From Eledone cirrhosa (taxonomy: Eukaryota): DNA of 64,000 nt. Where the stretch lies: positions 24,490,001-24,554,000 of the forward strand of contig OZ024745.1 of the NCBI GenBank assembly GCA_964016885.1, read 5' to 3'. The notes under the pieces are model-generated. The model did not search any database and was not told the origin of the DNA. It worked only from the letters and a program-made list of their open reading frames with translations. Within the stretch, counting starts at the first letter, position 1, and each line of letters starts with the position of its first letter. A program made the translations under genes and the position numbers. Of this stretch, positions 9,565 to 53,666 are shown piece by piece.

Positions 9565-9865
9565 TAGTTGTGTATAATGGTAGCTATGGTGCTTCCATAG
9601 GCGGTATGCCAAAATTAGCAATCGATATTCAGCAGAGTAGAGTGTAGATAGTATAAAGAAAACGAAAAATCAGTGATGCATCTGGACTTAATTTATTGCC
9701 TGTTACAATTGTTTCGCCGGCAGGTAGCTCGAGACATGGTCCCTGTATGGATCCAGCCAGATCCATACAGGGACCATGTCTCGAGCTACCTGCCGGCGAA
9801 ACAATTGTAACAGGCAATAAATTAAGTCCAGATGCATCACTGATTTTTCGTTTGCTTTATACTAT
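9565..9865. mobile_element. Fold-back palindromic insertion in (TA)n carrying the HHR 3' half
   Basis: Arms 9648-9753 and 9760-9865 (1 mismatch, loop CAGCCA). Each arm has GAAACAATTGTA..AATAAA. The minus copy extends to the TA tract at 9565. Confidence 0.85.
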
Positions 9866-11118
9866 ATATATATATATATATATATATATATATATATATA
9901 TATACACACTTACATACAGACATACATTCCTGCATACATAGATACAAATATACATGCACACACACACACACACACACATACACACATACACACACACACA
10001 CATGCACACACACACAACACACAACGCACACACATATACATATATATATATATATATACTTACATACATATATTTGATGGCTGCAACTCGATTTCGAGTA
10101 ATGCCATCGCTTCATACTTAAGCCTAAACATCACAGACGTGGCCTTTTAGTCCTGCTAGGGACTTTCATATGGCCAACAATACCATACATCGCAAGAAAT
10201 GTCACATATCAAGCGATGCCTTTACTTACCTTTTTTAAGTGAGGAAAGGTTTTGTACGGAGCCAATCCCCCATCTTTAAACATGGAATACATTTACCTAA
10301 AAAGAAGAACTGGTCACATCATACATAAATGATGGCTGCATCTTGATTTCGAGAACTAATTCCTTTCAGCATATTTTGTAACAAAACAAAGAAACATTTT
10401 TTTCGGCTATGATCAACCATGTTCACTCAAAACACGTGAATGTCGTTTAGATCAACGGATGCCTCTGCTTGAAGTTTTCTTTTAAGTGAAGAAAGACCTT
10501 GCTGTAGAAGGGTTGATAAAGATTGTAGACATGGTGGTGGAACCATCTTTGTCCAATAGCTAGGTGTCTTGCATATCCTTTGTATTGTTTATTCTAAATC
10601 ATATGTCACCAGTGCTTTGATGAAGCAACATCAATAATCAGCCCGTGATATATCAATGAATTCAGAGAGCATGTGTAATTCTTATTTTCCTTCTTGTCAT
10701 CTTATTCTTATTCATGTAACTGTTCCCTTAATACATGCCTGTTGTATAACAGTTATCATCAAAATGCGTATAACAGCAATTGTGTAACGAATAAATGATG
10801 TAAATTCTAACCTGTTTACTTATTCTTCAATACTGTAATTATACTCCGAAGTATGTAGACATTCTTGTATACTTCGTTGAGTGCTCTATCCTGCGTACAC
10901 TAGTGACTGTTGTTTAACTAACATTTTTATACCATGTATATATATATGCGTGTGTGTGCGTGTGTGTGTGTGTGTAACTGAATATCTTCGGTTAATTGAG
11001 GTTCTCTCTGCAATTCTCTCCAGGGATGTTTACAATACAAAAACTATTATACATGTGAATTCATATTTATTAGTAATTATGCAACATTGTATGGAAAACT
11101 AGATCCAGTCCTCGATAT

Positions 11119-11601
11119 GTTTTTTATTGATTTCTTTATTAGCCACAAGGGCGCAACAAGAAAGGGGACAATACAAAGACATGCCGGGGATTTTACATAC
11201 AGTCGTGTAAAAATATAAAAACAAACAATTTCAACAATCGAAATCCCCAATAGGGGGGAGGCGCCACAAATGGGTTGTTTAATACCCCGTCGATAGAACA
11301 ACCCTCAACTCAAGGAGCGTGTTGTGCAAGTGCTCCTTTCTTCCTTTTGCTCTCTTCCTCAACCTACAGGCTTATAAACAGAGAAGGCCCAATCACTCGG
11401 GCCATTTTCGCTTCATTCACCCACCTTTCAGTAAATTTACTGGGGTGCAGTGCCTCTCTCTCCACCCTGATTCTCCTTCTAAAGTGATACTTAAAGAATG
11501 GAATCAATTGTTGTCCAGAGAGAAAGGCATCTGTCCTCAGTCCTCTCAACCTCGTCCACCATATAACTTCTTTCACCATAGCCACCGTAGTTTTTTATTG
11601 A
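11119..11601 (-). mobile_element. 3' fragment of an L1/Tx1-type LINE with 12-bp TSD
   Basis: Minus translation MAMVKEVIWWTRLRGL..FFKYHF..FTERWV is homologous to 17365-17589. GTTTTTTATTGA occurs at 11119-11130 and 11590-11601. Confidence 0.8.
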
Positions 11602-12138
11602 CGTTCAATCTTAACTGTCAATATATTCTTGATTTTAAAATCACGAAATCTCCTATTTATAAGCAAGATAAAAAAAAATTATATTTAAAAATCAAGAAAG
11701 TATTTGTTCCATGTACCTTCACGTCCATACGAGAGAACTGTGTTTACTAGCTGACCAAATTAATAGGTAAATACTTCCCACACGATTTCCAGTTTCTTTG
11801 ATCTATCCTTGTCCTACCTATATAAATTGTCCTAGCACCACAACTATCGTTGTCACTATAACCGTTATACGTTGTTACTAAGCAATGTTTAAACACAGAA
11901 GGTCAGCTAACCTAAATACAGGAAACATTCTAACCAAGCTGGTCAAAAATGGTTGATTTATTTGAATTGATTTATATAAATTGATTGGTGTTCTATCTTT
12001 AACACACACGCACACACACACACACACACACACACACACACACACACACACACACACACACACACACACACACACACACACACACACACACGCACACACA
12101 CTCGCTCTCTCTCTCTCTCTCCCTCTCTCTCTATCTCT

Positions 12139-50200: not shown

Positions 50201-51291
50201 ACCCAGGGATCTCGCTCAGCAGTATCGCAGTGAATCCATGGATGAAAAACTGCAAGCCTATCAGCAAAAAATCATGCATGGATATGTTGCCAGGAAGCTC
50301 CAGAGTGAGAGTAATATAGATAAGGAAAGTAGTCTATCTTGGACCAACAACCGCTATATTGGCTCCCACTTGGAAGGATACGCTTTTGCAATCCAGGAAC
50401 AGGACATGAACACGAAATAGCTGATTCACAAAATAAGATAGGGATGCAGGCAAAACACCTAGATGTGATAACAAGTGCAGACTCTGCAGAACTAATATCG
50501 AGGATATCACCCACGTCATCAGCAGCTGTCCAAATATGTCATCGCGGTACTATCTACCTATGAGGCATGATGTAGTGGCCAAAACACTGTACAATGCAGT
50601 TCGTAAAAAAGATAGCCCCGATAATAAACACATTAAAAGCTACAGCAATGTGGAAGACATTCATGTACATAATATGAAAGAGTACTGGTGGAATGTTCCA
50701 GTAAAAACCCCAATAAAATGCAGGCATAACAGACAAGATATTATGATATGGGACAGGGAGAAGAAAGCATGCACAGTAGTGGAAATTAGCTGCCCAGCAG
50801 ATGCCAATATAATATCAAAGATCAGTGAAAAGGCGAACATTTATGCAGAACTGATGAGAAATCTGCAGATACTCCACCCTGATTACACCTTCAGATGTAT
50901 GCCTGTGATTATTGGGGCACTGGGATATGTTAGTAACTGCCTCAATACAAATCTTGAGAAGCTAGGCTTTACAGGAACAGAAAGAACACAACTCGTTAGG
51001 AAATTACAAGTACAATCCATTAATGGAACAGTAAAAATATGTAAGACATTCCAAAAATGTTGCATCTAATAACTGTACAGATACTAAGCATATACACATG
51101 CACACATACAACTCAAAACATACACATCCACATATACAATAACATCCATATCTACACATGCATGCATACATACATACAAACCTACCTAGTTGATGTTGTG
51201 TAAATTCCAATGAGAGAGTCTTGTGTCTATGTTAGAAACCGACTCTCTCTCTCTATTGGTAAAACTTTGTGAAATTATAAAACCAGAAGAA
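47246..51291 (+). mobile_element. Near full-length, decayed R4/Dong-type non-LTR retrotransposon (RT + CCHC + restriction-like endonuclease) in (CATA)n
   Basis: GYMNRMKLHWDEMHPEL, NYRPIAC, WLDYRKAF, GIFQGD, FVDDLKLY, GGRGL, CRLC..HVISSC, RHD, (P>Q)DI..VEISCP. Several stops and frameshifts. (CATA)n on both flanks. Confidence 0.9.
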
Positions 51292-53466
51292 CATACATAC
51301 ATACATACATACATACATACATACATACATACATACATACATACATACATACATACATACATACATACATACATTACAACAACTGACTATGAATCTGACA
51401 GGGCTATGTATATCTTTAAGGAAGTTGTGCGTAAAATATGGCAGGAAACGGGTGCGGTCTGTGTCTAAGAACGTAATTCCGTAGAATTTGTAGAAGTTGC
51501 GGCAGCAGACACAGAGTCTAATATTGAAGCGAAATGTGGTTTTAGTCAATATGAGGATAATGGTGGTAATGGTTGTAATGGTTCTAATGGTTGTGGTTAT
51601 GTTGTGAAGCTGGAAATGGTGGTGGTGTAGAAGATGGAAGGGAGATATAGTACTACTATTTGCTATACGGCGGAGGGTGTGTTAAATATATTTCGGTGTT
51701 ATGGCCGACAGCGTTTAAATTTTACGACTCGAGGCACAACCTCAAGAAACCAATAATTACATCATAATTCTTCGAATATTGGCAACAGGATATGTCTAAG
51801 TGTGTAGGTGTGTTTATATGTATGTATGTATGTATGTATGTATGTATGTATGTATGAATGTGTGTTTATATGTATGTATATGTATATGTGTGTGTATGTA
51901 TCTTTATACGTATATATATATGCGTGTGTGTGTGTGTGTGTGCGTGCATGTATATACATAAATACATAGATTTATACACATATACATACATACATATATA
52001 TTTTTATATATATATATATATATATATATATATATATATATATATATATATATATATAAATATATATGTATGTATGTATGTATATGTGTATAAATCTATG
52101 TATTTATGTATATACATGCACGCACACACACACGCATACACACACACACACACACACACACACACACACACACACACACACACACACACATACACACACA
52201 CACACACATATATATATATATATATATATAAACTCAGATACAACACACATCACACAAACACACACAAACACACGCACATATATATATATGTATTAATGTA
52301 TATATATGTATATATGTATATATGTATATACGTATTAATGTATATATATGTATATATATGTATTAATGAGTGCGTATGTATGTATTTATGATATGTCAAA
52401 TGTATGTATTTATATACAGGCATACATATATATGCTTGTAAATATGTGCGTGTGTATATATATATATATATATATATGTGTGTGTGTGTGTGTGTATGTT
52501 TTTATGTATGTATATATTCATATATGTATGTATGTAAGAATTTATATACGCATGTATGCATGAATATGTTTATATATGTATATATATATATATATATATA
52601 TATATATATATATATATATATATATATATATATATATGTATATATACATATATTTTTATATATATATATTTTATATAAATATGTATATATAATTATATAT
52701 ATACATACATATATATATATATATATATATATATATATATATATATATATATATATATGTGTGTGTGTGTGTGTGTGTGTGTGTGTGTGTGTGTGTGTGT
52801 GTGTGTGTGTGTGTGTGTGTGTGTGTGTGTGTGTGTATATATATATATGGAGGGAAAGAGTTGTATATACATATGCATATATATACACACATATACACAC
52901 ACGTATTAGCATGTATCTCTTTTTAATGGCTTCAGTTGTTCCGTTACATTAGCTACATGCTTCCACGTGCAAGATCAGTTGCATGACTGAGTGCATGTGT
53001 GGTTATGATAGCGATTGATTACGTCTGCACAGACGCCAGCTTCACACAAACGAATAACCGGGCACGACACGTGTTTTCGGCACGACCACATGAAGACTAA
53101 CTCGTTCTGTTAGCATGCAAGTCTTCTCTTATATCCTTACAGCTGTCGTTGTAGTCAATTCAATTGAGAGCAGTTAGATGTATGTTGAGAAATTTCCTTG
53201 AGTTCCTTGCCCAATAATATCAAGAATGCCACAATTCTATATATAATGAAATTTACTTTCGGTGGAGTTTGGCGCTCACAGAGAGAAATGGTAAACTGGA
53301 GTGTATTTCGATAGATACTTGAAGAAAGTTCTGGAGAAAAGGTTGGAGCGAATGGTTGTATCTATTTCTCTCTGGTATTAATAAAACTGAAGCAAAAATG
53401 AACTTGTATATTCACGCTATAACGCTCTTCTCTATTTCTCTCATATATATATATATATATATATAT

Positions 53467-53666
53467 AACGAAGGAAATGTGGTAAGGAACCAGATGGACC
53501 ATAACGCACCAAAGTACTCAATACTTAGGGTAGTAGAGTGGGTAATAGGAACGTAGTAGGACCCCGACGGCTGAGCTCAAGCCGTTTCGATGGCTAATTC
53601 TGGACTACCAGAATTAGCCGTCGAAACGGCTTGAGCTCAGCCGTCGGGGTCCTACTTCGTTCCTAT
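53467..53666. mobile_element. Fold-back pLTR insertion in (TA)n turning at the hammerhead stem II loop
   Basis: Arms 53545-53603 and 53608-53666 (2 mismatches, loop ACTA). Both strands read GAAACGGC-ttgagctca-GCCGTC-ggggtcc. No CTGANGA is present. Confidence 0.88.

Follow-up and report, generated by a model that had tools for sequence, protein, structure and literature searches.

Penelope-like elements (PLEs) that carry an endonuclease (EN+) form a characteristic unit, consisting of a pseudo-long terminal repeat (pLTR), an adjacent, inverted and 5'-truncated copy, and a tail of 30-40 bp on one side only (PMC8557442; PMC3846280). How the inverted pLTRs and the tail on a single side arise was described as an open question in 2021 (PMC8557442), and self-priming on an antisense template had been favoured in 2013 (PMC3846280). 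With a purified PLE protein, both strands of the target are cut and extended, and reverse transcription begins at two sites in the RNA which delimit the tail; ribozyme cleavage can be dispensed with (PMC11167929). The Hydra clade of PLEs is characterised by the endonuclease motifs CxCX5C and CxxC..E..N..CxH, by insertion into (TA)n and by hammerheads (PMC8557442, section 11). The six short insertions considered here lie in a stretch of 64,000 nucleotides (nt) from the 3.0-Gb genome of Eledone cirrhosa (contig OZ024745.1, positions 24,490,001 to 24,554,000), which as a whole is called the window, and within which coordinates are counted from its first letter. They are the pLTR ends of five PLE families (A to E) and, together with copies elsewhere in the genome, they point to twin target-primed reverse transcription as their probable origin, in which two cDNAs are usually made from one RNA and are then end-joined.

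A masked inverted-repeat scan of the 64-kb window located six palindromes, all within or adjoining TA tracts, which bears out a preliminary description of this DNA as to their places, their 0-2 mismatches, their unequal arms and their TA context. Family A is represented at 9565 (9648-9753 paired with 9760-9865; arms of 106 nt, one mismatch, spacer of 6 nt), family B at 12139 (12139-12165 with 12171-12197; 27 nt, no mismatches, 5 nt) and at 53467 (53545-53603 with 53608-53666; 59 nt, two mismatches, 4 nt), family C at 33561 (33645-33810 with 33820-33985; 166 nt, two mismatches, 9 nt), family D at 29006 (29006-29087 with 29121-29202; 82 nt, one mismatch, 33 nt) and family E at 25759 (25759-25897 with 25940-26078; 139 nt, one mismatch, 42 nt). 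This makes five families where about four had been counted (C and E being alike around the hammerhead motif), and a spacer of at most 6 nt in three of the six insertions, or four if two mismatches are allowed at 33561, where five had been described. The insertion at 12139 had been seen to have an arm cut short, and its inverted arm is in fact only 27 nt long. Inverted repeats of this kind are well beyond chance, as 53 were found in 510 kb sampled genome-wide and none in 10-nt block shuffles. TA runs flank 17 of these 53 on both sides, compared to 4.7% of random position pairs; this corresponds to a density of ~33 per Mb, though not each of them need be a PLE.

A genome survey covered 258 non-redundant loci across the five families (12 duplicates, including L324, having been removed), and an inverted arm was detected in 132 of them. 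Every family has two 3' ends, a short site and a long site, with a spacing of 78 (A), 77 (B), 78 (C), 60 (D) and 92 nt (E), and the stretch between the two is the known PLE tail. In 23 of the inverted loci one end is damaged and unclassable, so that the pairing counts rest on the remaining 109. Among these, a short-site arm was paired with a long-site arm in 104 cases, two short-site arms were paired in three and two long-site arms in two; i.e. the tail is present on exactly one arm in 104 of 109 loci, in keeping with the PLE insertion plan. Both 3' ends also occur in copies without a detected inverted arm (families A-D, n = 116: 48 short, 61 long and 7 unclassed). The shorter arm had been described as rejoining TA sequence at a short TA microhomology; its stop is not a chance microhomology but one fixed site per family. 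Kilobase-long two-arm structures that extend into the open reading frame (ORF) were observed at L182:3471-7802 and L185:3831-6200, and some loci scored as un-inverted may therefore have a distant inverted arm.

The 5' ends of the paired arms are independent of each other. When a difference of at most 5 nt is taken as level, the short-site arm reaches further in 52 of the 104 pairs, the long-site arm in 26, and 26 pairs are level; in the window, the short-site arm is the further-reaching one at 9565, 12139 and 25759 (three of six). Moreover, in 16 of the 104 pairs no more than 12 nt of the long arm overlap with the partner, and in six of these the long arm halts within 12 nt of the short site. 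A cDNA that started at the long site and snapped back could only yield a short-site arm contained in its partner, and the 52 further-reaching short-site arms therefore contradict simple snap-back, which had been proposed as one of two routes, as the main one; short snap-back-like inserts do occur in junctions. At 9565, 12139 and 25759 the spacer is part of the short-site arm and not of the long one. Both arms thus look RNA-templated, and the present counts argue against self-priming on an antisense template as favoured in 2013.

A more elaborate form of snap-back, in which one long-site cDNA snaps back, copies itself as far as the short site and joins the target, with the centre of the palindrome being trimmed later, is the main rival. 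Private variants are common to both arms, 26 of the 104 pairs end level and the templated junction inserts look like snap-back products, while snap-back 5' junctions are documented for R2 (PMC11371274) and self-priming has been proposed for PLE palindromes (PMC3846280). Such a route would, however, require that synthesis always stop at the short site, where many copies lacking an inverted arm also have their 3' end, and trimming would be expected to be symmetric, whereas the short-site arm is the further-reaching one by 52 to 26. In addition, long arms pile up at the short site, an extra G (discussed below) is kept on short-site arms with unrelated partners (L201, L336 and 25759), and asymmetry is already present where the two arms are almost the same in sequence (9565, 25759, 33561 and L205). 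Snap-back with subsequent trimming is consequently considered unlikely.

With respect to the templates, the two arms of one insertion differ by 2.5-5.7%, compared to 3.7-6.7% between loci, and private or subfamily variants are common to both arms, including those of the window pairs of families A and C. A derived haplotype of family B is concordant in five pairs and discordant in one (L002). At 53467, both arms have a one-base insertion at the same place, which most other copies are without (in one run it is missing from 2225 of 2436 reads). Two different RNAs as the usual templates were rejected on these grounds, the arms being mostly concordant and L002 the sole clear exception. A single RNA template as the rule implies strand displacement, which fits the stalling of long arms at the short site. 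Some apparent differences between arms were also set aside, as the arm-specific variants in families A (position 98) and D (position 64) come from alignments running into the TA tract, and an A/G difference at position 12 of family B comes from query selection at a CpG.

The preliminary description placed the turn at a native RNA hairpin (stem II of the hammerhead, or a stem just upstream) at 12139, 29006, 33561 and 53467. Comparison with un-inverted copies revealed that none of the six turns coincides with a native hairpin; because these copies have other sequence upstream, the hairpins at those four places are created by the junction itself. The turn of family B is located beyond the stem, within a loop of 33 nt, and the long stem at 12139 and 53467 exists only through the inversion. 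In families A and C the apparent loop is extra 5' sequence of one arm, in family D the small hairpin at 29006 arises from a 6-nt junction insert, and the 42-nt spacer of family E is the 5' part of the short-site arm. None of the family D junctions listed folds back at the native stem II, which is read through instead.

Of the 132 junctions, 49 are clean, with an overlap of 0 nt in 15, 1 nt in 14, 2 nt in eight, 3 nt in five, 4 nt in five, and 5 and 7 nt in one each, while 83 contain inserted letters (in older copies, the strict arm mapping used for the counts makes inserts look longer than they are). Overlaps of 2-5 nt are above random, being present in 18 of 42 clean junctions of families A-D compared to ~17% in the null, and this excess resembles microhomology-mediated joining. 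The source of an insert is frequently the element itself, given that an element 8-mer is contained in 32 of the 49 inserts of 8 nt or more, versus 25% in shuffles. Nearly the same insert of 9-21 nt, taken from the adjacent arm, was observed in four independent family B junctions (L002, L009, L023 and L012), which is a recurrent repair path. At the family B hotspot the native run of three to four T is often replaced in the junction by a lengthened T/A run of up to 18 nt (as at window 12166-12170, L014 and L284), possibly through repeated copying at the 5' end of the RNA.

For a native RNA hairpin that both fixes the turn and supplies the pairing, it can be said that 2-5-nt overlaps are commoner than random, that the junction of L332 (family E) has 7 nt of native complementarity, and that a native G-C-rich stem just upstream of the family A hotspot could stall the reverse transcriptase (RT). 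However, with turning points mapped on native copies, an overlap of 6 nt or more was found in only one of the 132 inverted loci and the short-site arm is the further-reaching one in 52 of 104 pairs, contrary to what hairpin-directed snap-back should produce (a native stem of at least 6 bp, with the spacer on the long-site cDNA); family D stem II is read through and the family B hotspot lies past its stem. The native-hairpin model is largely refuted by this, and we regard it as very improbable. Accordingly, of the alternative mechanism first suggested (two TA-primed cDNAs annealing through the RNA stem), the two TA-primed cDNAs are supported and the annealing is not, the overlap being 0-5 nt in 48 of the 49 clean junctions.

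Instead of marking a hairpin, the turns cluster at one 5' hotspot per family. With arms chosen by queries downstream of the hotspot, 6 of 28 (A), 9 of 28 (C), 12 of 30 (D) and 16 of 29 (E) end within 6 nt of it; for family B, a hand count over the first 100 of at least 13,743 pattern matches gave about 61 that end within 9 nt. In the window, every insertion except 9565 (five of six) has one arm whose end is at most 4 nt from the hotspot. All five hotspots read YYA(+1)NW, and in family E, which was examined after the idea had formed, a TATA box starts 32 nt upstream. A TATA box together with an initiator-like TCACT has been described in a rotifer pLTR (PMC3846280). Arms of families B and D that end exactly at the hotspot tend to have an extra, non-native G before +1 (26 G to 8 A, versus 41 to 77 at other arm ends, p = 2.4e-5). 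It is present on six of seven family D short-site arms, and also on short-site arms whose partner shares little or no sequence with them (L201, L336 and window 25759). An extra G is the expected trace of an RT copying a 5' cap; a literature search documented no cap-derived extra G in the passages covered. Judged from these sequence features, short pLTR transcripts are likely to have their capped start at the hotspot.

It could also be argued that two primings did take place and that the hotspot is simply a site of RT stalling or RNA processing, with the G reflecting a bias of the junctions. The lack of a G excess in families C and E, the lack of a clear TATA box in A-D and the native stem beside the family A hotspot would fit, yet YYANW at all five hotspots, TATA at -32 in E, the strong G excess in B and D and the TATA and TCACT of the rotifer pLTR (PMC3846280) speak against it, and we find it quite improbable.

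Taken together, it seems probable that the insertions are made as follows. The PLE endonuclease would make a cut in each strand of a (TA)n target, after which each DNA end would prime reverse transcription on RNA, at either the short or the long site. The template would mostly be short and capped, transcribed from a promoter that lies within the pLTR, and the cDNAs would run off at or near its 5' end. Both cDNAs would usually come from one RNA, and the long-site cDNA would have to displace the short-site cDNA, so that it frequently halts on reaching the short site or earlier. The cDNA 3' ends would finally be joined via 0-5 nt of microhomology or via short, often templated, inserts, while native hairpins and ribozyme cleavage would play no part in setting the turn. 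A stronger version, about which we are evenly divided, would make twin priming obligate for PLEs: a dimeric RT-endonuclease makes a double-strand cut and uses two hard-wired sites of one RNA, the short one first and the long one by displacement. This one rule would yield the tail, the inverted pLTR and the palindromes, and in this genome the capped pLTR transcripts of 140-270 nt would be parasites resembling short interspersed elements (SINEs), accounting for hairpin-forming insertions on the order of 100,000.

Several points weigh against twin priming from a capped template. The transcription start and the cap are read from sequence, the hotspots of families A-D were picked after viewing the data, and a clear TATA box is present only in E. 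The extra G is not enriched in families C and E (5 of 24 versus 41 of 203, p = 1.0), family A gave one usable case only, and some Gs can be read as partner-arm sequence. Central deletions in a perfect palindrome could mimic asymmetric or non-overlapping arms, and short-site arms under ~15 nt go undetected, which inflates the 52:26 asymmetry. Gene conversion could also make the two arms alike, and so could subfamilies that were active in different periods. Finally, sampling favours the best-matching copies and copies holding the query.

A further concern is that the palindromes are artefacts of assembly or library preparation (fold-back chimeric reads), or else ready-made palindromes resembling miniature inverted-repeat transposable elements (MITEs). 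None of the six exact window junctions was confirmed in independent reads (two were tested, 33560-33990 and 53468-53668, and no exact spanning record was listed), and a few junction types recur between loci. On the other hand, head-to-head joints of families B and C are present in independent short-read data. For family B, the best-supported joint listed among short-read contigs is that of a long arm halting approximately at the short site and a partner starting from the hotspot (53548 to 53608), and family C joints were found in short-read contigs as well as in raw Illumina reads of a second study. Joints of both families are present in contigs of one other data set, and several in two runs of one sample; the raw-read runs are reduced-representation, and the best-matching sequencing runs may be the assembly's own sample. 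Furthermore, the arms differ by mutations, the ends are fixed per family, most loci have a junction of their own, and the two termini are not equal as those of terminal inverted repeats would be. An artefact or a MITE-like origin accordingly deserves very little credence. A MITE or other DNA transposon derivative was also rejected as an identity, in view of the unequal termini and of centres that differ between most loci.

The identity of the insertions as pLTRs of PLEs, with hammerhead-like motifs and TA targeting, was part of the preliminary description and is supported here. The families are high-copy (764-1493 first-look candidates each), and one 26-nt family B pattern has at least 13,743 exact matches. 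A DNA search with the family B tail, in which very common words are skipped, gave no match. Long copies of families A, B, C and E have, upstream and colinear, C-terminal endonuclease remnants with CxxC..E..N..CxH, as judged by motif. This Hydra-type endonuclease signature was found in A (L181), B (L185, L285), C (L102, L309, L317) and E (L338). The CxCX5C linker precedes the endonuclease in the family A copy L182 and was not seen in the stretches fetched for B, C and E. For family D no ORF remnant was found within 1.5 kb, and Pfam gave no GIY-YIG or RT match on any of four ORF remnant fragments. Outer flanks consist of (TA)n or (CA)n runs, the former corresponding to Hydra-type insertion, and because of these runs a target-site duplication is unreadable. 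In family D (L111-L140), the long-site end often abuts (CA)n or (GT)n and the short-site end abuts TA. Judging by these motifs and targets, the families are likely to be members of the Hydra clade.

As for the ribozyme, a descriptor script recognised a full type I hammerhead motif at window 32208 and in L101, a natural copy of family C, and CUGANGA/GAAA cores were recognised by eye in family E and, with an imperfect stem II closing pair, in D; those of A and B are degenerate, and short family B inserts contain only the 3' half of the motif. Rfam scans of the window and three arms returned no hammerhead, only repeat-driven microRNA matches, which is a weak test for minimal variants. In family B there was no sign of turning at the ribozyme cleavage site, none of 91 arm ends lying exactly at the predicted cut (its position read by hand). 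An animal non-LTR retrozyme, defined by tandem direct monomers with a hammerhead (10.64898/2026.07.22.740005), was rejected, the six insertions being single head-to-head units.

The individual arms in the window can be described in these terms. At 9565 (family A, mapped on the natural un-inverted copies L070 and L258), the long-site arm (9567-9753, reverse strand) has a 78-nt tail, a 3' end on (TA)n and a 5' end at +66 from the hotspot; the short-site arm (9754-9865, forward) has its 5' end at +60, and the 6-nt "loop" is its own sequence, leaving a blunt junction without a native hairpin. At 12139 (family B), a 27-nt inverted arm (12139-12165, reverse) ends at the hotspot, its distal part being gone beside a (CT)n run, and the short-site arm (12168-12231, forward) runs from the hotspot, after the lengthened T run, to the fixed short site and (TA)n, containing only the 3' half of the hammerhead-like motif. 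The other family B insertion, at 53467, has a long-site arm (53468-53607, reverse) with a 77-nt tail and a 5' end at the hotspot (-1), and a short-site arm (53608-53666, forward) from +3. A solo, un-inverted family B copy (25355-25438, forward) ends at the long site within (TA)n. At 25759 (family E), the short-site arm (25759-25937, reverse) reaches exactly as far as the hotspot (+1 of a TATA/initiator-like start) and has a single further, non-native G (25937), and the long-site arm (25940-26168, forward) has a 92-nt tail, a 5' end at +39 and a type I minimal hammerhead-like motif inside. At 29006 (family D), the short-site arm (29006-29087, reverse; 5' end +26) is followed by the 6-nt insert (29088-29093) and a longer arm (29094-29215, forward), which runs from the hotspot (-1) through the hammerhead-like motif and, after the first 13 nt of the tail, halts at a TA-like motif inside it. 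At 33561 (family C), a long-site arm (33563-33819, reverse) with a 78-nt tail and a 5' end at +4 faces a short-site arm (33820-33985, forward) with a 5' end at approximately +14, which has rare variants in common with its partner.

Other repeats were observed in the window as well. A bigger inverted pair beside (TA)n (34715-36064; 111-nt arms, no mismatches, 1128-nt spacer) has similar arms in L042:8487-9065 and L149:8870-9419 and is probably a sixth family with the two-arm plan. A family-C-like copy (32149-32208, reverse) has a complete type I hammerhead motif with a 10-bp stem I, and TA-bounded fragments with hammerhead-like words (12260-12810 and 33066-33500) are probably ends of further PLE families. 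A 219-bp SINE-like unit, which may resemble octopus SINEs, lies in tandem at 44613-45020, and the same repeat forms a 149-bp palindrome outside TA tracts in L041 (L041:2379-2685).

Because the architecture is already published for PLEs, these are new families of a known kind. What they add is that thousands of young copies per family make the inverted-pLTR question countable, and that the resulting numbers speak for two primings, at the two start sites that another PLE uses in vitro, which ties the biochemistry to the genomic structure. Twin priming predicts two cDNAs from unlike sites on one cut target. TA-flanked inverted repeats could also matter for double-stranded RNA, RNA editing or genome stability. 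No twin-priming account of PLE inverted pLTRs was found in the openly accessible literature.

With the EN+ PLE unit, the insertions share the head-to-head inverted copy, the tail at one end, the 5' truncation, the hammerhead-like motif and the AT-rich target, but their tails are longer (60-92 nt) and many are only 100-450 bp in total; for the strict short/long pairing and the 5' hotspot with its extra G, no counterpart was found in the accessible parts of PMC8557442 and PMC3846280. The likeness to the Hydra clade comprises the remnants of CxCX5C (A) and CxxC..E..N..CxH (A, B, C and E), the (TA)n targets and the hammerhead-like motifs (PMC8557442). That clade is also marked by the RT motifs RWK and DKT; the protein comparison here covers C-terminal endonuclease remnants. 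R2 snap-back 5' junctions have short self-templated inverted pieces at the cDNA 3' end, as in the inserts here, but no second arm with a fixed far end or with sequence absent from the first cDNA, as far as described in the accessible text (PMC11371274). The Anolis Poseidon element PAc in vitro also has two RT start sites that bound the tail, AT-rich targets and a hammerhead site that is read through, but it is of another clade, no difference of start site between strands was found for it, whereas unlike sites are paired almost always in the genomic copies here, and inverted pLTRs are not discussed in the accessible part of that paper (PMC11167929). The likeness to twin priming by L1 lies in the priming by both target ends and the joining of cDNAs via short microhomology (bioRxiv 10.1101/2024.12.14.628481). 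The difference is one of fixity, as both sites are fixed here and the overlap of the arms is mostly complete, which makes them palindromes. The second priming of L1 takes place at a variable site, with hardly any overlap between its two pieces.

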